A stretch of 39,263 nt of DNA from Promethearchaeota archaeon (lineage in GTDB: Archaea; Asgardarchaeota; Lokiarchaeia; Sigyniarchaeales; SOKP01), in the NCBI GenBank assembly GCA_004524365.1, contig SDNL01000003.1:1-39263 (forward strand), read 5' to 3'. Under the pieces are notes generated by a model. The model saw nothing but the letters and a program-made list of their open reading frames with translations. It had not been told where the DNA came from and made no database searches. How positions within the stretch are numbered: the stretch's first letter is position 1; the number at the start of each line of letters is the position of its first letter. The position numbers and the translations under genes are program-made. This document shows positions 434 to 19,903 of the stretch, one piece after another.

Positions 434-829
434 CTACTTTTCTGAGAGAATACTATCAACTTTTCTTAGTAATTCTTTGCCTGAGAAGGGTTTAGTTAGG
501 TAGAAATCTGCGCCAAGCCTTTTTCCTTTTTGAATATCCTCATTAAAGCTTTTAACGGTGAATAATACAACAATTATATCTTTATATTCATCATCAGTCT
601 TAATGCGATCTAGAACGGTATACCCATCGATACCAGGCATCATTACATCGAGAAGAATTAGATCTATCTTATCGCTTTTATCTTCTAAGATCTTAATTGC
701 TTCCTTTCCATTATTGCATGTAATAATATTATAATGGCCTAATGTAAGAAACTTACTTGTAAGATTTAAAATGTCTGGTTCATCATCCACAATAAGAATT
801 GTCTTTCCATTATCTACTTTTTCTGACAT
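434..829 (-). CDS. Stand-alone response regulator receiver (CheY-like)
   Basis: Motifs ILIVDDE, LILLDVMMP (phospho-Asp), FT and TKPF; no output domain. ATG829 is preferred over TTG862. Confidence 0.92.
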   Translation of the reverse strand: MSEKVDNGKTILIVDDEPDILNLTSKFLTLGHYNIITCNNGKEAIKILEDKSDKIDLILLDVMMPGIDGYTVLDRIKTDDEYKDIIVVLFTVKSFNEDIQKGKRLGADFYLTKPFSGKELLRKVDSILSEK

Positions 830-1101
830 TTTACGATTTTTTAAATTTTTCCCTTTTATCAATATTTAATTCTTAAATTATATTCTTTTAAAAAACTTTG
901 GATTTTTCTCCTATTTTATACAACTAACACGAACAATATTATCATAAAATAATATAGTTGTTTAATTTATTGTAAGAAAAACTCCAAATTATACTTAAAT
1001 GAATTTAAAAAAGATAATATACTTTTTTATTTGATTTGCCATAGAATCAAAATTTATTTAATAAGAATTGATTTTGAATCAGTTAAGAATGTAAGCATTA
1101 T

Positions 1102-1758
1102 ATGACTCGAAAAGAGGGGTTACCCCAATTTCCTTATGATTATATCGGAGAAAAAGCAAAAGAATATAATAATTTGGAATGGATGGAACAAAACCAAAAA
1201 AGGACAACTTTAAAGTGCCTTGACTACCTATTCGATCCCAAATTGGGCGATTTAGAGATTTCTGAGTTTTTTAATTATATTGTGATTGATTTAGGATGTG
1301 GGACCGGTTTTTCATCAGAAGTACTAATAGATTTAGGTTTTAATGTAATTGGGATTGATATTTTGAAAGACATGCTTTTTAAAACTCAAAACAAAAATAT
1401 ATCTTATGAAAAAAACCAAATACACGAACTATTATTAGGAAGTATAATAAATATTCCAATTAGGACTAATTGTATCGATTTTATTATTTCTGTATCAGCC
1501 TATAATTTTATAACTCATAACATTCCAACTTTTTCAGAGAAAAAATCAGTAATAAGTAGTACAGCTCGTTATTTATATCAAATACTCAAAAAGAACGGTC
1601 GAATGATAATTGAATTTTACCCTGGAGATGAGCAAAATTTGAATTTATTCTTAAGCTCTTTTAAAAAGAATAAATTTAATGGATTTCATATCAAAGGAAA
1701 CAAAGGTGGTCAACATTTTGTACTATTAAAAAAAAGGGGATATAACAGTGAGATGTAA
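1102..1758 (+). CDS. Class I SAM-dependent methyltransferase, Bud23/WBSCR22-like (SSU rRNA m7G MTase family)
   Basis: Motif I IDLGCGTG and GIDI. Segments IPIRTNCIDFIISVSA and LYQILKKNGRMIIEFYP resemble yeast Bud23 as recalled. Confidence 0.8.
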   Translation: MTRKEGLPQFPYDYIGEKAKEYNNLEWMEQNQKRTTLKCLDYLFDPKLGDLEISEFFNYIVIDLGCGTGFSSEVLIDLGFNVIGIDILKDMLFKTQNKNISYEKNQIHELLLGSIINIPIRTNCIDFIISVSAYNFITHNIPTFSEKKSVISSTARYLYQILKKNGRMIIEFYPGDEQNLNLFLSSFKKNKFNGFHIKGNKGGQHFVLLKKRGYNSEM

Positions 1759-2884
1759 ATTTTGTCAAAAGGAAACCGAATTAATTTCCGAAACGCTTGG
1801 GGTATGTAGGGAATGTATCTTAAAAGGTGACTGGAATGAAATTAAACCTCATATTATGGCAGTACATGAAAAGATCCGTGAATTAGAAAATTTACCAAAA
1901 GTGTCCCCACGTGCATCTAAATCAAAAATAGTCTTTGAATGTGAGTTATGTATAAATAATTGTCAGCTTACTAACCAAGATAAAAGTTATTGTGGTCTTC
2001 GGAATACTCCAAAAGATTTAAAGGATAACCTTCCCTTTCCTAAAAAATCTGAGGGATACATGCACGGATATCTAGACTCCAACCCAACAAACTGTTGTAA
2101 TGCATGGTTTTGCCCAGCGGGAACATCACGGGGATTTCCCAAATATTCAAATACAAATGGTCCAGAATATGGTACTTATAGCTATGCTGCCTTTTTATAT
2201 GGATGTTCATTTGATTGTTTATTTTGTCAAAATGCCCAACATAAGCATTTTTCAACATATGATATTATAAATATCAATGAAATCGCAGATCAGATAACAG
2301 ATAATAAGGATATCACTTGTATCTGCTTTTTTGGGGGGACTCCAGAACCTCAATTACCCTTTACAATACATTTATCGAAAAGGATTCTAAAAAAAATCAA
2401 AGAGCAAAATGAAAGAAGATTTCGTATATGCTGGGAATGGAATGGAAGTGGAAAGCGAGAATTGGTGGAAGAATGTATGAAATTAGCATTAAGATCTGGT
2501 GGAAATATTAAATTTGACTTAAAAGCTTTTCATGAACGGCTTAATTATGCCCTATGTGGTGTGAGTAATGAAAGAACCCTCGATAATTTTAAATATTTAG
2601 CAGAAAACTATTTCGGAACAAGAGGCGAAGAAATGCCAGAATTAAGCGGATGCACACTCTTAGTGCCAGGATATACCAATGCAGAAGAGGTTGAAAATAT
2701 CGCTAAATTTATAAGTCTAATTGATAAAAATATTCCTTACTCTTTATTAGTATTCCATCCAGATTATCATATGAAGGATCTACCAATAACTCCCAAAAAA
2801 CAAGCAATTCAATGTCTTAATATAGCGAAAAAATTTCTAAATAATGTTCATTTAGGAAATAGATTTTTATTAAATTTAACATAG
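1748..2884 (+). CDS. Radical SAM protein (PFL-activase/AmmeMemoRadiSam-like archaeal family) with N-terminal Cys-rich domain
   Basis: CSFDCLFC (CxxxCxxC), FFGGTPEP, KFDLKA, TLLVPGY and FHPDY motifs; N-terminal CxxC..CxxC. The GTG start overlaps the upstream gene by 11 nt. Confidence 0.88.
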   Translation: MRCKFCQKETELISETLGVCRECILKGDWNEIKPHIMAVHEKIRELENLPKVSPRASKSKIVFECELCINNCQLTNQDKSYCGLRNTPKDLKDNLPFPKKSEGYMHGYLDSNPTNCCNAWFCPAGTSRGFPKYSNTNGPEYGTYSYAAFLYGCSFDCLFCQNAQHKHFSTYDIININEIADQITDNKDITCICFFGGTPEPQLPFTIHLSKRILKKIKEQNERRFRICWEWNGSGKRELVEECMKLALRSGGNIKFDLKAFHERLNYALCGVSNERTLDNFKYLAENYFGTRGEEMPELSGCTLLVPGYTNAEEVENIAKFISLIDKNIPYSLLVFHPDYHMKDLPITPKKQAIQCLNIAKKFLNNVHLGNRFLLNLT

Positions 2885-3057: not shown

Positions 3058-4221
3058 TTGAATGACTTGTTAGAAAGGCATTTTTTGGAAAGAACTTATA
3101 AATATCTAGTTGGAAAAATTAAAAAATCCTTAGATAATGTGGATAAAAAAGAAGTATATAAGTTTTTAGATGCTCTCAAATCAGGAATGGATGATAAACG
3201 AGTGACCGTTGACGGGGCGGGGCGTTCATTACAAAGTGTTCTTTTATTAGTATCCCAATTAGAAAATACATATGGAATACGAGTCAATCAAGTTAATAAT
3301 GCGAATTTACGACCGTTAAGGGGAGGCGATATTTTTGTTGCAAATTCTCGATCTGCCAAAGTAGAGCCAGAAGAAGCAAAGATTGTCAGTCATGCAAGGT
3401 TCGCTAGAAAGAAAGGACTTGATGTCTTTTTTATTACTGCGAATGAGGAGATTAAGGATATATTCGAAAATGTTATTCTTATAAAAAAAGAAGGCTATAA
3501 TAAAGAATATGCTCCCTTAGGAACAGGCTTTGAACAAGCTACCGCAACATTAATGTCTTGTATTGCCTGTTCATATTATAAAAAAAATCCCAAGGAATCA
3601 TTTGACACATTATGCAAAGAGGTAATTCAAGGATACAATAGAAATTTAGAAACTCTTTTGAAACAAGATAGGGCCCTTGATGCCTTTATTGAAATCGTCA
3701 ATGAATATCTAAGTATAGAAAATCCTGGTGTAGTTTACTTTAAAGGGATGGGCATCAATGATATCATTGCAAAAGTTATTGCTATTAGATACGGTCATCT
3801 ACATAAAAATAATTGTAAGGATTTAAATGTTGTATATGAAAGCCACTGGAGGTGCCGACGTTCCAATGATTTGGGGATCTTTCTCAGTGGAAGTGGGCAA
3901 ACCACACAGATGATTAAATATTTAAGCCAAGCTAAATCGATTGGTATGAAAACTTTTGTTATTACATCCTATAAGGATTCTAAATTAGCTAGATCAAACC
4001 AATGGTATAAAAATTGTAGGGGAAACTTAATTATTAGTGGCAGAAGCATAAAATACAGTTATTTCAATCAGGCGCTTGAAACAATTGATGAAGCGTTCTT
4101 TCCCCAATTTGAATTAAATACTTATCTGACTTTAGACGCACTTTTAGCACTCATTGCTAAATATAATAATATTGATGAAGAAGATATGAAAAAAACACAT
4201 AGAGATAAAGAACTCGAATAA
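3058..4221 (+). CDS. Tandem SIS-domain protein, 6-phospho-3-hexuloisomerase (PHI/HxlB)-like duplication
   Basis: First half has GAGRS and APLGTGFE. Second half has LSGSGQT, ITSYKDSKLA, QFE and the C-terminal MKKTHRDKELE. About twice the length of a PHI monomer. Confidence 0.75.
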   Translation: MNDLLERHFLERTYKYLVGKIKKSLDNVDKKEVYKFLDALKSGMDDKRVTVDGAGRSLQSVLLLVSQLENTYGIRVNQVNNANLRPLRGGDIFVANSRSAKVEPEEAKIVSHARFARKKGLDVFFITANEEIKDIFENVILIKKEGYNKEYAPLGTGFEQATATLMSCIACSYYKKNPKESFDTLCKEVIQGYNRNLETLLKQDRALDAFIEIVNEYLSIENPGVVYFKGMGINDIIAKVIAIRYGHLHKNNCKDLNVVYESHWRCRRSNDLGIFLSGSGQTTQMIKYLSQAKSIGMKTFVITSYKDSKLARSNQWYKNCRGNLIISGRSIKYSYFNQALETIDEAFFPQFELNTYLTLDALLALIAKYNNIDEEDMKKTHRDKELE

Positions 4222-4279
4222 AATCTTGTAATTTCAAAATATCAGCTATTAGTAGATTATAATATTATACTTATAGATC

Positions 4280-4335
4280 ATTGAAGTCTCCCCGCACTGA
4301 ATAAAGGGAGAGGACTTCTTTCGCAATTTCGTTAA
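4280..4335. repeat. GC-rich imperfect hairpin; possible IS200/IS605-end or MITE relic, or a terminator
   Basis: GAAGTCTCCCC(4283)...GGGAGAGGACTTC(4318) is an imperfect inverted repeat in AT-rich intergenic DNA. The minus strand ends GCGGGGAGACTTCAA. Confidence 0.4.
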
Positions 4336-4510
4336 AAATTTATAATTAAACCTTTTTTTAGCATTATTATTATACTTTAAAAAATAATTTTCTAAATCTA
4401 TTAATCTATTCGTTATCGTTTCTATATTTTCTTTTTTTAAAAATAAATTTAAAGGTTATAATAAAAGATATATACTTATATTATAGGTATTATTATTTAA
4501 AAATAGAATA

Positions 4511-6103
4511 ATGTCAGAAAAATCCAAAGGTTTCTTAATCTCAATTTTTTTAAGCATATTCATATTTATTATGGGTATCTCCATTTTATATTCTGTTAGT
4601 ATAGCATTACCTGGTGATCCAACTTTAGCACTATTACCAGACACTTTTACAATAGCACAGTATCAAGCTGCCAGAAATGAATTAGGACTAGATTTACCTA
4701 TATTTATTCAAATTCTTAGATATATTTTTAATATGATAATTGGAAATTGGGGTCCTTCTGAATTAGGTACTCCTGAGGATGTTTTAGGAGTATTAACCTT
4801 ATTAATACCAAGATTAATTTTAAGATTTCTTATCCCCTTGTTAATCAGTATTCCATCTGGTGTAATTTTAGGAATATATCTAAAAAATAATAAAAAGAAA
4901 ATCGTGAAAAAAACTATGTTAATGACTATAATTACCCTTATTTCATTATCATTTATCTTTGTGATCTTATTTTCATTATTAAATCTCTTCATTCTAAAAG
5001 ATTTTATAAATATTTTATTATTAATTCTTATTTTTATTCCCTTTACAGCTTTTTTAACATATATAAAACCCCGAAATAAAGATATTTTAGATGATATAAT
5101 ATCTAATTCTTTATTTACATTTTTAGGTTTTGGAATGTTAATTTCTTGGTATTTGCTTATAAATATTCTTCTCTATAATGATGGATTTGGAACTTATTTA
5201 TTTTTAGCAATACAAACATTTGATTTTTTTTCTATAATGGGTTTAATAGTGTTTTTAATTATTTCTGAAGCAATAGTGGTTTTTATTTTTAATTTATTGG
5301 TAATTAATCTTAACCATTCAAACGAAAAGGAGGTGAATGAATCAGAAATTAATAATAAAGAAAACCAATCAGATTCTGATAATTATATAGATAAAAAAAG
5401 TAGAAATAAAGAGAAATCAATTTTTAAACACCCAATTTTATTGCTTGGTTTATTGATACTAAACGGATTAATTATTTTTATGATAGTAGCAGTTTTTATT
5501 CCCCAATTTTCTCTATTTTTATATGGTTTACTAGATTCTTTTATATTTACAATTATTCTATTAATTCCAACTTTATTAATTGGTTCCATTTTTGGATTTT
5601 TAATTCAATTCTCTGAGTTAATTTCCCAGAAATTTAAAAGAATTATAAAAATTATAACAATGATTTCTTTATTTACCGTTTATTTTATTCCTGGAATTAT
5701 ACTTCCCATTTTATTATTCTATGTATATTTTACAATAGGAATCCATGGAATTATTCCATTTTCCCTTTTTTTCATTCCCCTTCTCACGTTTTATATATCA
5801 AATTCAAAGGTTGAAAAAAATCAGATAAAAGAGGGATTATATAGGATGGTAAAAAATATTATTCTCATTATACCCTTTATAATAGGATTTTCCCTCACTT
5901 ATTATTATTTATTAGGTTTTTCTGGTTATAACTATTCTGGTTTTAATTTTGGTTATATAATAAAGAGTGGGATAAATAATATTTATGATACATTTTGGTC
6001 TTTAATTTTTCCAGCTATTGGTATTTTTTTACTTCTTGTTTCTTTCTTTTTCATTTATGGAGGAATGTCAATAAATTTGAATTTCAAAGAAATGAATGAC
6101 TGA
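4511..6103 (+). CDS. Fused, divergent DppB/DppC-like ABC peptide transporter permease
   Basis: N-terminal LPGDP...ARNELGLDLPIFIQILRYIFNMIIGNWGPS is DppB-like. C-terminal FGYIIKSG..FWSLIFPAIGI is DppC-like. There are many TM helices and a charged linker between the halves. Confidence 0.72.
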   Translation: MSEKSKGFLISIFLSIFIFIMGISILYSVSIALPGDPTLALLPDTFTIAQYQAARNELGLDLPIFIQILRYIFNMIIGNWGPSELGTPEDVLGVLTLLIPRLILRFLIPLLISIPSGVILGIYLKNNKKKIVKKTMLMTIITLISLSFIFVILFSLLNLFILKDFINILLLILIFIPFTAFLTYIKPRNKDILDDIISNSLFTFLGFGMLISWYLLINILLYNDGFGTYLFLAIQTFDFFSIMGLIVFLIISEAIVVFIFNLLVINLNHSNEKEVNESEINNKENQSDSDNYIDKKSRNKEKSIFKHPILLLGLLILNGLIIFMIVAVFIPQFSLFLYGLLDSFIFTIILLIPTLLIGSIFGFLIQFSELISQKFKRIIKIITMISLFTVYFIPGIILPILLFYVYFTIGIHGIIPFSLFFIPLLTFYISNSKVEKNQIKEGLYRMVKNIILIIPFIIGFSLTYYYLLGFSGYNYSGFNFGYIIKSGINNIYDTFWSLIFPAIGIFLLLVSFFFIYGGMSINLNFKEMND

Positions 6104-11058: not shown

Positions 11059-12705
11059 TTAGAGTATTTTACCTAAATTTTTGTTAACTCCTCTTTCCAC
11101 TTCAAAGATAAATCCTTGTTCTTCTAATAATCTGACTCCTTTCTCAATTCTTTCTCTGAATTTTGGATCCTTCAATAAATTATTATTTTCCGCAGTAAAT
11201 TCAAAATTAGATCGAAGGGGCATATCATTTTCAATTTTATCGTTTATGATTGCATCTAATTTTGAAAATAAATCAGACAAATCTTCATAAACTTTATCGG
11301 AATCCTTCAAAACATACCCAGGAAAAACTATCTCCATTTTTTCTTCCATCATATCTTCATCCTCTACAAACATTACATATAATGGCATATAAAACCATTG
11401 AATGGGTTTCTTAATAGTTGGAGCATCCTCGTCCTTAATTGACCAGCTTACTAATTCATCTACCTCATCCAGACAATCTCTTCGTTTTGATATAATAATT
11501 CTCTTGATTTCAGTAAAAAGAGCCTCCATTCTCGCTCTAAGATCTTCAAGTTTTTGAACATTTTCTTCTTTTTCTTTTTCCAATCTTGATATTTCATCAT
11601 CTTTGGATTCTAATTGTTCTGTTAATTCACTGCGTAATTGTTCTAGCTGTTCTTTAGCGTGAATATTAATATCTTCTGCTCGTTCTTTTTGAATTTCAAA
11701 TTTATTTTCAATTGTATCAACTTGAGTTAAAATTTCAGATATTTCGGTTCTTAAGGAATCAAATTGATTTTTAATTTTAGGAACAAGATCTCCAAACGAA
11801 CTTCTGGAAAGCGTTTCTGGATTGCTATAAAACTTATTTTTCTTAAGGATTTCTTCCATGTTTCTATTTAGAGTTTTGAAGAGAGATGCTACATTTTCAG
11901 TGACTTTTTTCTTCTCAGTGCGTTTCCATAAATTAATATTATCTTGCTTATTTTCTAATTGATTTTCTACTTCCTCATCACTTATACTATTAGAAGCTCT
12001 TTCTATCTCTGAATTATATCTCCTTTCTACATCCATAATGCGTACTTTTATATCCTTTAATAAAGATTCTAATTCATCTCCAATTAATTCAATTTGTTCT
12101 TTCCAGCGATTGGCATTCCCCTTTAATTGTTGGATAGTATTTCTATATTCCTCTGAAATGTCTAAGGCTTCTTCAGTACTTAAACTCGCATCCAACGGAA
12201 TGAACCCCTCTAATGATTTATATTGTAAGTTTGGTAACAATTTCTTTATTGAATTAATGAATTCAGGGCTCGTAAGTGAAGGTAATTCAAAAGCTTGATA
12301 TTCAGAGACCGATCCTTCACCTATCTCTTCTGCTTCACTATCTTGGTATGTAAGTATATTTTTAATTCTATTTAATAACTCAATCTCGTTTCGTTCATCT
12401 ATATTTCTCAACACATGGCCCAATAGAGGTTTACGAGGAGGATTGGTAAATTTTGATTTTTTAGAAAATACTTTTAATCCGTCTAAAATAATATGAGTTG
12501 AATAGGGTTTTGTAATCCCTTGGATTGCTAAAAAAGGCCAAAGTAGCTTGGCAAAAGAAAGTACATTATGATTTCCATTTAAATGCAAATCCCGTGTTAA
12601 TAAATGGAATGCAACAGCCAATTCATCATCTTTTTTTAAAAATGGTCGCCCACTTGACTCCTTTAAAAAAAGCGGCAAAATATATTGATCACCATGAACG
12701 CTCAT
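11059..12705 (-). CDS. Uncharacterized protein with long central coiled coil
   Basis: 548 aa ORF with an E/K/L/Q-rich heptad-like region at roughly residues 180-420, flanked by globular termini. No Walker motifs. Confidence 0.8.
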   Translation of the reverse strand: MSVHGDQYILPLFLKESSGRPFLKKDDELAVAFHLLTRDLHLNGNHNVLSFAKLLWPFLAIQGITKPYSTHIILDGLKVFSKKSKFTNPPRKPLLGHVLRNIDERNEIELLNRIKNILTYQDSEAEEIGEGSVSEYQAFELPSLTSPEFINSIKKLLPNLQYKSLEGFIPLDASLSTEEALDISEEYRNTIQQLKGNANRWKEQIELIGDELESLLKDIKVRIMDVERRYNSEIERASNSISDEEVENQLENKQDNINLWKRTEKKKVTENVASLFKTLNRNMEEILKKNKFYSNPETLSRSSFGDLVPKIKNQFDSLRTEISEILTQVDTIENKFEIQKERAEDINIHAKEQLEQLRSELTEQLESKDDEISRLEKEKEENVQKLEDLRARMEALFTEIKRIIISKRRDCLDEVDELVSWSIKDEDAPTIKKPIQWFYMPLYVMFVEDEDMMEEKMEIVFPGYVLKDSDKVYEDLSDLFSKLDAIINDKIENDMPLRSNFEFTAENNNLLKDPKFRERIEKGVRLLEEQGFIFEVERGVNKNLGKIL

Positions 12706-15497: not shown

Positions 15498-18197
15498 ATG
15501 AATAAACGAAACTTTAAATTTTCGATAAAAAAGAAGAAGAGCCCAAAAAAGAAGGTAATTGTGTTATGTATAGGGTTGCTATTTATAAATCTCGTAGTAA
15601 TTGGAGGATTATTAATTCATAATCCATATTTAAATGGCATTGGTTTAGTTCAAGAAGATAAAAATGCTCCATATTTTATAGATAAAATAAATACGCAAGG
15701 AGCTGATATTTCTCTATTACAAGATCCCTACACAGCTAATTTTAACGATACTTGGCAATTTTTTGAAAGCAATTATCAATCCGATTTAGGATATGAAATT
15801 CAAACTTATTTTAGGGAAGGAAGTGCGGATGGAACTATTATTAATAGTCTAGTTTATTCTTTAGATAATCTATTGCTATATAATACATTACTCAAATCAA
15901 TAAATGATTATGATTACTCACAGATTTTAGAAAAATATTTAGATCTAAAAAATACTGATTTATGGTATGAAGGATCGGATCAATTAGATTATGGATTTGT
16001 TGAATCAATAGATAATATTACAGGAGATGTAAATAATTATAACAGATATTTAATAGACAATTTATATCCCATCTTTCTATTGGGAGATAATATCAAAAGT
16101 TCTACCGGACAATCATATGTAGATGAATTAGAAGATATATTTTTGCTTATAAATTCAAGTAGGTTTTATGATACCAGTTCAAATATTTTCTATCATTATA
16201 ACTCTTCAACGGGAGATATCTATACAAGAGATAACTTATATGCCATATTAGGAAATTTACTTCTTAATCAAACAGATAGATTAGATAATGAGATACAAAT
16301 AAGAGCAGGAGAATTGGCGAATGAGACAATGGAAACGTTATCTAATACCTATTGGGACGCAACTAATTTAGGATATTATTATAGTGATTCAAATAATAGC
16401 AAAAATTTGGAAACAAATGCTTTAGGAATTATTACCTTAATTGAGTATTGGAAATGGACTAATAATTCCGAATATTTAAATAATGCTATCTCACTTTTCA
16501 ACAAGATAAATTCTACATTATGGTACGAATTTGCAGGAAATGGAGCATATTTGAATTGGTCAACACAGAATTGGGGGAGTAATATTACTGATATAGCTGA
16601 TTTAAAAGCTAATGCAATTATGCTACAAGCATGTGTATCATTATTTGAAGTATCAGGAAATATAACATATTATGATTTGGTAAAAGAATTATATAATACA
16701 TTTGAAAATGAATTTTATGATAATAGCTATAATTCATATGCAAAATCTAAAAGCATTAGCACCGGAATTAATAATAATAAAAATCTGCTTTATAATTTAA
16801 GAATATCTGAAGCTTATTTATCTGCTTTAGAAGTGTATGAAAATTCAAGTTTATCATCCATATTCAATAAAAGTACTCCAGTTCCCGAATTTATCTTTAA
16901 TCAAGAAACTTTAAAACTTACTACAAACTACACATATAATTCAATTTATTCCTCATATGGAATCTCTGATGCATCACTAACCTATACACTTCGATATCCT
17001 AATGGTACAATAATAGATACTCAAGAATTTGCTACAGATGAAAATGGGACACATACATTTACTTATTACATTTCAAGTGATTTACCAGTAGGAGAAGATT
17101 ATTCAATTACGATATTTGCTAATGCAAGTTTCCATAAATTCGTAAATATTACTAAATTTTTTGATATTATCGGAGGAATTAAATATGAATCAGGGTTAGA
17201 AGATGAAACTGAATATTATCAAGGGACTACACAAAATATAACATTTATACTTAATAACACAAGAAATAATGATATAAATTTGACTTATTCAATAAAAGCG
17301 GATTCAATATTGATTCAGAACCCAAAATTAGTATTCTTGAATACATCTGGTTTAAACAACATTACAGCGAATTTCACTATTAAAAATGAAGCCGCTCCAG
17401 GTAATTATTCCTTCCATTTCTTATTAAAAAATGGAAGTATTACGTTTTTAGATTATGTGAAGGTCATTGAAATAAAAAATGCACTAGAAATCACTAATTT
17501 AATTTATGACAGTGAAGTGGTAAAGGGTGATATAGCTCAGATTAATTTAACAGCAACAAATTTTCTACAAAATGAAAGCCAATCATTTAATTTGAGCATT
17601 TCTGGAGATTATATTGATAATATCCAAAACCAAGAATACCAATTATCTCCATATGAAATAAAAATAATTTCCCATATATGCAATATTAGTAATAATATAG
17701 ACTCAGATACGATTCAAGTTGAGATAGATGTCTCCAAAGGGAATGAATCATATTACACAAAATCTTTAACTTTACAAGTAGTCGATAAATTGGAAATTAT
17801 TGATTGTAGCTTCTCTCAAAGTGTAGCACAAGCTACTTCTGCTTATTTAATATTAGTTGTAAAAAACAATATGGAAACTAGTCAAGAATATACATTATAT
17901 ATTAATAATTTGAAAATAACTGGTTCCTTAAACCCTGGAGAGAACAGAATTGTTAAATCAGTAGTACCAACCATAAATCCTTATGATTTTAGCACAAAAA
18001 CATATTCTATAAGATTATATGATCAACAGAATAATGAAATTTACAGAAACTCATTTAAAGTTAATATTGAACTATCTGTTATGCTTCTAGTGTTATGCTA
18101 TATCTTGCCCATTATGGTTCCTATAGCAATTGTAATATATTTTAAAAATAAACAAGTTAAAATAGACCGTTTAAGAAAAAGTGGAAATAAAAGATGA
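15498..18197 (+). CDS. Large membrane-anchored surface glycoprotein; putative alpha/alpha-toroid (six-hairpin glycosidase-like) domain plus Ig-like beta domains
   Basis: Basic N-terminus plus TM/signal; helical repeats such as YWDATNLGYY, EYLNNAISLFNKI and NEFYDNSYNSY; beta-rich N/T/S-rich C-half; C-terminal TM with a basic tail; many NxS/T sequons. Confidence 0.7.
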   Translation: MNKRNFKFSIKKKKSPKKKVIVLCIGLLFINLVVIGGLLIHNPYLNGIGLVQEDKNAPYFIDKINTQGADISLLQDPYTANFNDTWQFFESNYQSDLGYEIQTYFREGSADGTIINSLVYSLDNLLLYNTLLKSINDYDYSQILEKYLDLKNTDLWYEGSDQLDYGFVESIDNITGDVNNYNRYLIDNLYPIFLLGDNIKSSTGQSYVDELEDIFLLINSSRFYDTSSNIFYHYNSSTGDIYTRDNLYAILGNLLLNQTDRLDNEIQIRAGELANETMETLSNTYWDATNLGYYYSDSNNSKNLETNALGIITLIEYWKWTNNSEYLNNAISLFNKINSTLWYEFAGNGAYLNWSTQNWGSNITDIADLKANAIMLQACVSLFEVSGNITYYDLVKELYNTFENEFYDNSYNSYAKSKSISTGINNNKNLLYNLRISEAYLSALEVYENSSLSSIFNKSTPVPEFIFNQETLKLTTNYTYNSIYSSYGISDASLTYTLRYPNGTIIDTQEFATDENGTHTFTYYISSDLPVGEDYSITIFANASFHKFVNITKFFDIIGGIKYESGLEDETEYYQGTTQNITFILNNTRNNDINLTYSIKADSILIQNPKLVFLNTSGLNNITANFTIKNEAAPGNYSFHFLLKNGSITFLDYVKVIEIKNALEITNLIYDSEVVKGDIAQINLTATNFLQNESQSFNLSISGDYIDNIQNQEYQLSPYEIKIISHICNISNNIDSDTIQVEIDVSKGNESYYTKSLTLQVVDKLEIIDCSFSQSVAQATSAYLILVVKNNMETSQEYTLYINNLKITGSLNPGENRIVKSVVPTINPYDFSTKTYSIRLYDQQNNEIYRNSFKVNIELSVMLLVLCYILPIMVPIAIVIYFKNKQVKIDRLRKSGNKR

Positions 18198-19903
18198 GAA
18201 TGAAAGTAAACAAAAAGGATTTCGTACTTGCGTTACTTATAACTAGTATTATTGCTAGCTTTTTTACTGTTGGATGCTTATGCAATTCATACAATTCTAT
18301 AAATTTAAAAAAAAATCCTGAAAAGAATGATTTTTCTGAAATCTTAATTGCAAATGGTAACAATGCCATTGCTACTGAAGATATATATCTTAATGACACA
18401 GAAGTTATTTCCTTATTTGAATCAATTAAAATAGATTTAAATACTTCTGAATATAATTCAAAGAATTATACAACAATTCAATTCAAGTATTCCGATGGAA
18501 CAGAATTTATTAAAAATATGAGTCATGTTTCGACCGGCGATGGAAATAATTTTACATATACTTATACCCCATCTTATAATATTCCAACTGGTATGCACCG
18601 TATTTTTTTCCAAATATACGCTGAAAATGGTACTTTATTAAATGCTAATGAAACCGAAACTACCTTTATGGTAATATCTAACTATTATGCAGCATCATTT
18701 GTAATTGAGGAAATTTATCTCGATGATACTTTGGATGTTGCGCTGACCATTAAAGATGTTGGAGGATACAGTTTTAATTATAATGTCTCAATTGTTGACT
18801 CAACTAATGAATCAGCCCAAACAGATTTAATTTTTATTGGTAATAATATCAACTGGTTCAATAGAACTATAGAGGAATCCAAGTTTAATGAAGTTAACTC
18901 GTTTTACTATATAAAAGTGAATCTCACAGATGTATCTACTGAAAAAGTGCGAGCAACATATTTCCCTTTTAAATTATTAAACAATAAACCAGAGATAATT
19001 GAAAATACGATTAATATCCCTACAGAAATCTATAGATCTAATACTAATAATGGTTTTGTATCCTTAAATATTTCTGATGTTGAAACTGATCCACAGAATC
19101 TTACTGTGTCTATGGTTTTTACAGAAAAGTTTGGAGAACAAGTTGGAATCCCCAAGATTTTAAATCGAGAAAGTTATAACAACTTCTCTACAGCATTTCA
19201 TATAGGAACAAGCAATCCAATAGGAACTTATTATGTGAACATAACTGCAATGGATTTAAATAGTGGGTCTAGCTCATATATTACTACTCTTCAGGTAAAA
19301 AATAATCCTCCTGAAATAAATAGTTATAAAATAAATGGTCAAGAAAGAACCGAGAGTATCTCTGTAAACTATGGCGACGATTTAAGTTTTATTTTTAATA
19401 TAACCGATAAAGATAGCAATATTGAATTTGTTACTGTTTCCTTATTTGGAGATAATGGACAATGGTTCAATATAACAAGAGATTACAAAGAAGATATGAT
19501 AATATCTGTGAGTTCTTATGATTTAGTTCAAGGGAGTTGGTATGTGTATATCTCTGTGTTAGATTCAGATGGGGCGCGTACAAGCTTGACTTCAGATTAT
19601 GGTTTAGCACCACAACAAATCCAAATTATTCCCGATGTTCTAAGCGATATTCTACCTTGGATTTCTTTAGTGATTGGAGTGATTATAGGCTTGATTGTTG
19701 GAACTGGACTAGCATACAAACTGCTCAAAATGAGGACGGAGAAGGATTTAAAACCTAAAAAGAAAACAAAAGCTAAAAAGAAAGAGGAAAAAACTCCGAA
19801 AAAACAACCTCCAAAAGAAAAAGAACCAAAAGAAGAAAAAGTAGAAGAAGAAAAAAAAGAAAAAGTAAAACCATCGAAACGCAAAATTAAACGTGGGTTT
19901 TAA
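18194..19903 (+). CDS. Type I membrane surface protein with Ig/cadherin-like beta repeats and Lys/Glu-rich cytoplasmic tail
   Basis: Signal peptide; NNKPEI and NNPPEI repeat starts; C-terminal TM (ILPWISLVIGVIIGLIVGTGLAY); low-complexity K/E/P tail. ATGA overlap with the upstream gene. Confidence 0.72.
   Translation: MRMKVNKKDFVLALLITSIIASFFTVGCLCNSYNSINLKKNPEKNDFSEILIANGNNAIATEDIYLNDTEVISLFESIKIDLNTSEYNSKNYTTIQFKYSDGTEFIKNMSHVSTGDGNNFTYTYTPSYNIPTGMHRIFFQIYAENGTLLNANETETTFMVISNYYAASFVIEEIYLDDTLDVALTIKDVGGYSFNYNVSIVDSTNESAQTDLIFIGNNINWFNRTIEESKFNEVNSFYYIKVNLTDVSTEKVRATYFPFKLLNNKPEIIENTINIPTEIYRSNTNNGFVSLNISDVETDPQNLTVSMVFTEKFGEQVGIPKILNRESYNNFSTAFHIGTSNPIGTYYVNITAMDLNSGSSSYITTLQVKNNPPEINSYKINGQERTESISVNYGDDLSFIFNITDKDSNIEFVTVSLFGDNGQWFNITRDYKEDMIISVSSYDLVQGSWYVYISVLDSDGARTSLTSDYGLAPQQIQIIPDVLSDILPWISLVIGVIIGLIVGTGLAYKLLKMRTEKDLKPKKKTKAKKKEEKTPKKQPPKEKEPKEEKVEEEKKEKVKPSKRKIKRGF

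Follow-up and report, generated by a model that had tools for sequence, protein, structure and literature searches.

The window analysed here, a stretch of 39,263 nucleotides (contig SDNL01000003.1, assembly GCA_004524365.1) from a Promethearchaeota archaeon, carries near its start a gene for an S-adenosylmethionine (SAM)-dependent methyltransferase of the Bud23 family, preceded by a divergent receiver-domain gene and followed by an overlapping gene for a radical SAM enzyme. The methyltransferase is a true member of the Bud23 superfamily in an Asgard archaeon and is probably not the Bud23 orthologue. The Asgard members of the superfamily are referred to below as A (the type found in the window), B (the P0091 family) and par2 (a paralogue of closer Bud23 type, comprising P0145, P0122 and their relatives). 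The block around the gene is arranged as follows:

434..862, minus strand: stand-alone CheY-like receiver-domain gene (Pfam Response_reg, 9.6e-27)
863..1101, no strand assigned: divergent AT-rich intergenic spacer of 239 bp between the receiver gene and the methyltransferase-radical SAM unit
1102..1758, plus strand: A-type Bud23-family class I SAM methyltransferase, an ATG-to-TAA open reading frame of 218 amino acids (assigned by Pfam, phmmer against the PDB, AlphaFold2 with Foldseek, and the tree)
1748..2884, plus strand: radical SAM enzyme of 378 amino acids with a GTG start (Pfam Radical_SAM, 7.6e-15, and Fer4_12; CxxxCxxC at residues 153-160)

Bud23 (BUD23/WBSCR22), together with Trm112 (TRMT112), is the 18S rRNA (guanine1575/1639-N7)-methyltransferase, and structures of the pair are available (PDB 4QTT/4QTU, 6G4W and 7WTS-7WTW). 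The initial annotation of the window had proposed that the gene encodes a Bud23-like protein whose similarity extends beyond the generic SAM-binding motif I. The open reading frame does contain every motif string quoted there, and the yeast Bud23 strings given there for comparison are found in the printed tool alignments with Bud23. Motif I itself (DLGCGTG) occupies residues 63-69, and the S-x-S-A and F-Y-P motifs of Bud23 are likewise present. The top phmmer match in the PDB is yeast Bud23 (4qtt_B, E 3.6e-13, query residues 60-197), followed by human WBSCR22 (7wtw_q, 3.7e-10), while the first generic methyltransferase, PH0226, reaches only 2.9e-7. Since the significant stretch of the phmmer alignment begins at residue 60, collinearity with the N-terminal part of Bud23 rests on the structural alignment. 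The AlphaFold2 model (pLDDT 82.8, pTM 0.81, from an alignment of 29 relatives) retrieves Bud23/WBSCR22 chains as all of its top eight Foldseek matches (E 2e-16 to 5e-15), with Trm11 as the next fold (1.5e-11). These alignments run over about 200 columns, that is, the whole methyltransferase domain, at 23-26% identity and template-modelling (TM) scores on target of 0.71-0.88; the class I fold, the N-terminal lid and the C-terminal β-hairpin are all shared with Bud23 (TM on target 0.84-0.88, crystal and cryo-electron microscopy chains). Both in sequence and in fold the best match to Bud23 or WBSCR22 thus stands ahead of all generic methyltransferases, and the proposed family membership stands. 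The automatic family labels are less specific: Pfam gives Methyltransf_11 (6.3e-11), the Pfam and NCBIfam labels are all generic (Methyltransf_11/25/31), and every NCBIfam match is far under its cut-off. With a hidden Markov model (HMM) built by us from 25 eukaryotic Bud23 domains, the median score of A-type proteins is 124 bits, and that of generic methyltransferases is in the range of roughly 40-57 bits.

The window protein also differs from Bud23 in several respects. It is only about 24% identical to it, and it has no basic C-terminal extension: Pfam finds no match to PF12589 (WBS_methylT), as had been anticipated, and in the AlphaFold2 model the chain ends about 10 residues past the last strand. 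The extension defines the eukaryotic form only, because the par2-type archaeal forms lack it as well. A further comparison is that with par2, which belongs to the same superfamily, has a similar length (about 200-215 amino acids, again with no C-terminal extension) and occurs in the same genomes. The two archaeal proteins are only 25-36% identical to each other, and the Bud23 matches of par2 fall between 1e-23 and 1e-36. For the par2 protein P0145, the E value is 4.1e-26 against human WBSCR22 and 3.6e-23 against yeast Bud23 (residues 13-210 against 3-202), far closer than the 3.6e-13 of the window protein; P0122, a member of Helarchaeota type, reaches 1.8e-36 against Bud23 and shares 42-43% identity with named fungal Bud23/WBSCR22 proteins. 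Some of the par2-type proteins have been automatically labelled by JGI as '18S rRNA (guanine1575-N7)-methyltransferase' (K19306 type). Some match to par2 was found in 41/41 of the relatives' genomes, par2 is also present in all five A-type genomes tested, and it accompanies the A-type gene in five of the six other genomes of the window's genus (E 1e-67 to 1e-75). In the related genomes, therefore, the closest homologue of eukaryotic Bud23 is par2 and not the A-type gene. The surroundings of the two genes differ too, as par2 lies next to a gene for the ribosomal protein eS25 and has neither a radical SAM nor a receiver gene as neighbour. In a genome of the same genus (L103) this arrangement reads:

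3828-4463, minus strand: par2
4596-4895, plus strand: Ribosomal_S25 (eS25) gene of 99 amino acids, head-to-head with par2 (Pfam 29.7 bits, against a cut-off of 28.8)

The difference between the lineages can be traced to individual positions. Conservation was compared at the 31 alignment columns that are at least 90% conserved in the 16 eukaryotic Bud23 rows compared. At 16 of these columns the window protein agrees with the eukaryotes, as it does at 5 of the 15 whose residue is rare in the outgroup and hence family-specific. Three of the 31 columns divide the lineages cleanly:

After strand β4 (loop and helix): Q-W in 100% of eukaryotes, par2 and other short forms; N-F in 100% of A, B and AB2; N135 and F136 in the window protein
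End of strand β5, before F-Y-P: Q in 90-100% of eukaryotes, par2 and other short forms; E in 80-100% of A, B and AB2; E171 in the window protein

The Bud23 signature (Q-W and Q, each in at least 94% of the 16 eukaryotic rows) is thus kept by par2 and replaced in the window protein. The elements that follow β4 and end β5 line the substrate pocket in class I methyltransferases, and N135, F136 and E171 all lie outside the predicted Trm112 interface. The N-F/E combination is accordingly read by us as a remodelled substrate pocket, with its placement taken from the position in the class I fold, and the enzyme probably makes a mark other than the N7-methylguanosine (m7G) of Bud23.

Two phylogenetic analyses bear on the same question; both omit rows shorter than 185 amino acids, and the reduced set is our own choice of representatives. 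A FastTree analysis of 140 rows puts 14 generic methyltransferases into a group of their own (97*), apart from the 126 rows of a Bud23-like assemblage. A placement among UbiE/Methyltransf_11 enzymes, named beforehand as an outcome that would overturn the Bud23 assignment, did not occur. The maximum-likelihood (ML) tree (IQ-TREE, 74 rows, 205 columns, LG+C20+F+G4 with posterior mean site frequencies) recovers eukaryotic Bud23 as a clade (100/100) and joins the 16 eukaryotic rows with 10 par2 rows and 20 other short forms at 99/95, leaving the window's lineage outside. Within that lineage the A type is supported at 100/100, A together with B at 99/93, and an A/B core of 21 rows at 95/93; the branch between all 69 Bud23-like rows and the last outgroup row is weak (63/48). 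In these trees the window protein lies within the Bud23-like assemblage, and eukaryotic Bud23 groups with the par2-type proteins. The topology in which eukaryotic Bud23 is joined to A/B is left unrejected by the approximately unbiased (AU) test, and topology alone therefore cannot settle orthology; the tree favours paralogy without proving it.

The B-type proteins form the sister clade of A and share its N-F/E signature, yet are only 35-40% identical to A-type proteins. They include NCBI records named Lokiarchaeum ossiferum and Promethearchaeum syntrophicum. A and B were never found together in any genome examined, and in five A-type genomes the best match to B was the A locus itself. A tandem of par2 with the B-type gene occurs in a different family of this order, an arrangement which fits an origin by tandem duplication; no radical SAM or receiver gene was present within 5 kb of this tandem in the three regions fetched. 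From these relationships there appear to be two old lineages of Asgard paralogues, of which A/B is the more divergent.

Binding to Trm112 is a further property of Bud23 that is predicted for the window protein. The genome encodes a Trm112 on another contig:

550-1170 of that contig (C95), minus strand: Trm112 long form, 206 amino acids (Pfam 4.4e-11, residues 5-165)

Between the N- and C-terminal halves of its zinc knuckle lies an insert of about 120 amino acids, and the long form was found in 31/31 relatives. In Bourgeois 2017 (PMC5372719), archaeal Trm112 with a central region is described for Crenarchaeota only, at 130-140 amino acids. Two contigs of the assembly (C95 and C92) carry the 3' end of the Trm112 gene, together with its flank, in nearly the same form (97% at the protein level) but in opposite orientation, which is likely to reflect strain heterogeneity or an unmerged assembly overlap. 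The initial annotation had suggested modelling the methyltransferase with this partner. The predicted complex scores 0.92, against 0.36 for the best of three controls (both alignments used), and that mark is attained by 116 of the 157 complexes of known structure and by 2 of the 215 mismatched pairs. Agreement between runs is at least 96% of contacts, with a partner pLDDT of at least 89. Residues 107-126 of the methyltransferase are placed against residues 1-17 and 161-177 of Trm112, and this predicted interface is the β-zipper between the methyltransferase β3 and the Trm112 C-terminal strand that is described for Trm112-methyltransferase complexes in PMC5372719. On this prediction the window methyltransferase is probably Trm112-dependent, with the reservation that likeness to complexes already solved may itself explain the score.

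The second enzyme of the block is highly conserved. The GTG start of the radical SAM gene overlaps the stop codon of the methyltransferase by 11 nucleotides, and this start is supported by an alignment of 27 sequences (mean column identity 78%), in which M1, C3 and C6 are invariant. The nearest relative is the pyruvate formate-lyase activating enzyme (PflA; PDB 3C8F/3CB8), which shares the radical SAM core with CxxxCxxC (phmmer against the PDB, 3.5e-4; Foldseek 3cb8_A, 9.7e-10). The match gives TM scores of 0.71 on target and 0.48 on query, and the structure model is poor across residues 54-173. Compared with PflA, the protein is extended at the N-terminus by about 135 residues, in which three cysteine clusters are invariant, and its block includes no glycyl-radical enzyme gene. 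It falls under every NCBIfam cut-off (TIGR04337, 51.1 bits against 220; PFLA, 38.9 bits against 231.75), and by these cut-offs belongs neither to the AmmeMemoRadiSam nor to the glycyl-radical activase families. Look-alike clusters exist in Bathyarchaeota and Nitrososphaerota (ESM Atlas).

The order of the block, receiver (minus), methyltransferase (plus) and radical SAM (plus), is conserved. Counts of loci and neighbourhoods refer to the best 80 of 140 relatives in species-representative genomes. At 69/80 of these loci the radical SAM gene immediately follows the methyltransferase in the same orientation, and a homologue of the receiver gene (about 56-74% identity, across Asgard classes) lies within 1.5 kb upstream, in divergent orientation, at 77/80. 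The spacer at 863..1101 presumably holds the promoters of the receiver gene and of the methyltransferase-radical SAM unit. Eleven loci are without the radical SAM gene, and at one of them the contig stops 18 bases past the methyltransferase. Within the window's family, the radical SAM gene occurs in 17 of 24 other genomes and always adjoins an A-type match; none was found in the four family genomes that have no A-type match (91-100% complete), and three family genomes carry an A-type gene with no radical SAM gene detected, at least one of these being at a contig end. The A-type methyltransferase can therefore stand alone, whereas a close radical SAM gene was not seen without the methyltransferase in the genomes examined. 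An obligate partnership was also considered and was rejected, as all five genomes tested that have an A-type locus lacking the radical SAM gene hold no copy of it at E <= 1e-20. We know of no radical SAM partner of Bud23, though no search aimed at one was made, and the coupling of the window gene to one is another difference between the two. Being so tight and widespread, the link with this highly conserved enzyme points to a modification that has yet to be characterised.

A word-indexed search returned 80 relatives of the window protein, of which 77 are 188-224 amino acids long, and the named ones derive from Promethearchaeota, Lokiarchaeota, and Heimdall- and Odinarchaeota metagenome-assembled genomes (MAGs); several JGI records among them are auto-labelled '18S rRNA (guanine1575-N7)-methyltransferase' and some UbiE. 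The Asgard origin suggested for the gene is borne out by the best 80 of the 140 genome loci, 79 of which have Asgard or 'uncultured archaeon' titles, the last being titled as a Nanopelagicaceae bacterium. In this record (DATKTW010000010.1, a 'Candidatus Nanopelagicaceae bacterium' MAG) an Asgard-type methyltransferase is followed by the radical SAM gene, at 49% and 61% identity, which suggests that the bin is mislabelled or contaminated. When 1.84 billion representatives were searched exhaustively with HMMER, 720 matches were obtained at E <= 1e-3. Among the best 150 representatives, our own HMM detects the eukaryotic C-terminal domain in 25 and in none of the short archaeal forms, and a Pfam scan of 30 long ones shows it in 21. 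In the ranking from this search, many proteins of about 200 amino acids separate the family of the window protein from the eukaryotes, and the taxa named for short forms in the cluster listing and homologue search are Helarchaeota, Promethearchaeota, Micrarchaeota and Aenigmarchaeota.

These observations stand beside a literature in which an archaeal Bud23 is hardly mentioned. According to two papers from the Graille group, Bourgeois 2017 (PMC5372719) and van Tran 2018 (PMC6144793), archaea lack any homologue of Bud23, and m7G is not known to occur at the corresponding position of their 16S rRNA. The main text of Birikmen 2021 (PMC8481954) is silent on Bud23 and reports no ribosome biogenesis factor exclusive to Asgard; in its Supplementary Table S10, BUD23 appears in the abundance-filtered repertoire of Asgard alone and, unfiltered, for Asgard, Euryarchaeota and TACK. 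The supplementary files searched from a 2026 structural-modelling paper on Asgard eukaryotic signature proteins (PMC12962969) contain no entry for Bud23, WBSCR22 or Trm112. A full-text literature search, with subscription journals and bioRxiv supplements out of reach, gave no paper pairing Bud23 with Asgard or Lokiarchaeota, and none that describes the two paralogue lineages or the methyltransferase-radical SAM block. The presence of two old Bud23-family lineages in Asgard genomes is thus contrary to the statements that archaea have none, and had previously been printed as a table entry only. For arguments on eukaryogenesis, the choice of the copy compared matters: the window's copy is the divergent one, and is therefore not usable as evidence for a eukaryote-type step of 40S maturation.

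The reading which we favour, and consider fairly probable as a whole, is that the window gene encodes a divergent Bud23-family paralogue of the A/B lineage, which forms a heterodimer with Trm112, acts on a substrate other than G1575 and is mostly coupled to the radical SAM enzyme. The methyltransferase would bind the long-form Trm112 of its genome via the canonical β-zipper and would carry out the SAM-dependent methylation of a substrate different from the 16S G1575 equivalent, in a pocket bearing N-F/E in place of Q-W/Q. This substrate would most likely be an rRNA or tRNA base and, less likely, a translation-related protein. Co-transcription and translational coupling would link the methyltransferase to the activase-like radical SAM enzyme in most A-type lineages, and the latter would probably act on the same substrate after, or conditional on, its methylation, in an order that we infer. 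Several points weigh against this reading. The assembly from which the window comes is 62% complete and yielded the A-type gene but no par2, so that the A-type gene could be the sole copy in this organism. The base of the A/B lineage is weak in the ML tree (66/36), eukaryotic Bud23 and A/B as one clade are not rejected (delta lnL 9.35, p-AU 0.273), and A/B could be a fast-evolving orthologue. The replacements of Q by N, W by F and Q by E are chemically mild, so that a purine substrate stays plausible and the target may even be a guanine, and the Q-W/Q states may be merely ancestral. The Trm112 prediction was made where solved complexes of Trm112 with Bud23 and with other methyltransferases exist, and the pass consequently shows likeness and is not proof of binding. 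As for the coupling, the radical SAM gene is missing from ten loci whose sequence continues downstream for at least 1.5 kb, none of the five tested genomes of this kind has a copy at E <= 1e-20, and the co-occurrence counts overstate independence because the genomes are kin. Finally, the nearest fold of the radical SAM enzyme acts on protein, not on RNA.

Some of these points are shared by the explanation originally put forward, in which the gene is the Asgard orthologue or equivalent of Bud23 and, with Trm112, makes m7G at the G1575 equivalent of 16S rRNA in a eukaryote-type maturation of the small subunit. Bud23/WBSCR22 are indeed the best characterised matches, the Trm112 prediction passes, the signature substitutions are conservative, the clade of eukaryotic Bud23 with A/B survives the AU test (p 0.273) and par2 was not seen in the incomplete assembly. 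Against orthology stands par2 itself, which is much closer to Bud23 (4e-26 against 3.6e-13), keeps Q-W/Q, adjoins the eS25 gene and is present in five of six other genomes of the genus; A/B also lies outside the eukaryote and par2 clade (99/95), and no ribosomal genes surround the window gene. We consider the orthologue explanation quite unlikely, and the m7G1575 step that it would imply is likewise not supported. To our knowledge, the guanine equivalent to G1575 is universally conserved in 16S rRNA, and the base itself would not discriminate between these alternatives. Much less probable still, and in our view barely credible, is a generic small-molecule enzyme of UbiE/Methyltransf_11 type that resembles Bud23 in its Rossmann fold only and whose radical SAM neighbour belongs to a cofactor or metabolite pathway. 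The generic Pfam and NCBIfam labels, the UbiE naming of some JGI relatives and the weak branch (63/48) between the 69 Bud23-like rows and the last outgroup row would agree with it. Against these stand the 5-6 orders of magnitude which separate the Bud23 matches from the generic ones in both sequence and fold, the separation of generic methyltransferases in the 140-row tree (97*), the alignment of the N-terminal lid (with its conserved Q32) and the C-terminal strands with Bud23, and the predicted binding of Trm112 through the canonical interface.

A different alternative concerns the substrate rather than the ancestry, namely that the joint target of the methyltransferase and the activase-like radical SAM enzyme is protein instead of RNA, for example a translation factor or one of the ribosomal proteins. 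It draws on the similarity of the radical SAM enzyme to the pyruvate formate-lyase activating enzyme, which targets a protein glycine, and on the Trm112-dependent Mtq2, which acts on eRF1 according to Bourgeois 2017 (PMC5372719). The fold match is weak, however (TM on query 0.48, with model residues 54-173 poor), Bud23 as the nearest characterised relative is an RNA base methyltransferase, and the block conserves no candidate substrate gene but only the receiver-domain gene; we therefore regard a protein substrate as unlikely. The favoured reading, of a divergent Trm112-bound paralogue with a different target, can be carried further, though only tentatively and with more doubt than confidence: the A-type Bud23 paralogue, Trm112 and the activase-like radical SAM enzyme may form an undescribed two-step Asgard module, in which methylation on the translation machinery would be followed by radical SAM elaboration under signal control exerted via the receiver gene, and which would have originated when the archaeal Bud23 gene was duplicated in tandem, before the Asgard classes diverged. 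If true, this would amount to a regulated modification of ribosomes or tRNA under receiver-domain signal control.

The rest of the window is of housekeeping character and encodes a CDF transporter, an inositol monophosphatase, an MPG glycosylase and GNATs, as well as a class II aminoacyl-tRNA synthetase, an SDR and Ftr. Pfam detects no ribosomal genes in the window, and an Rfam scan of it gave no RNA family. Large open reading frames of 899, 569, 548 and 530 amino acids (15498-19903, plus strand; 11059-12705, minus strand; 4511-6103, plus strand) have no Pfam match at E <= 1e-6. An open reading frame at 3058-4221 (plus strand, 387 amino acids) contains two stretches matching the 6-phospho-3-hexuloisomerase (HxlB/SIS) model, at 86.5 bits against a cut-off of 160, and looks like a duplicated SIS-domain protein, which lies beside the block in 1/80 loci only.

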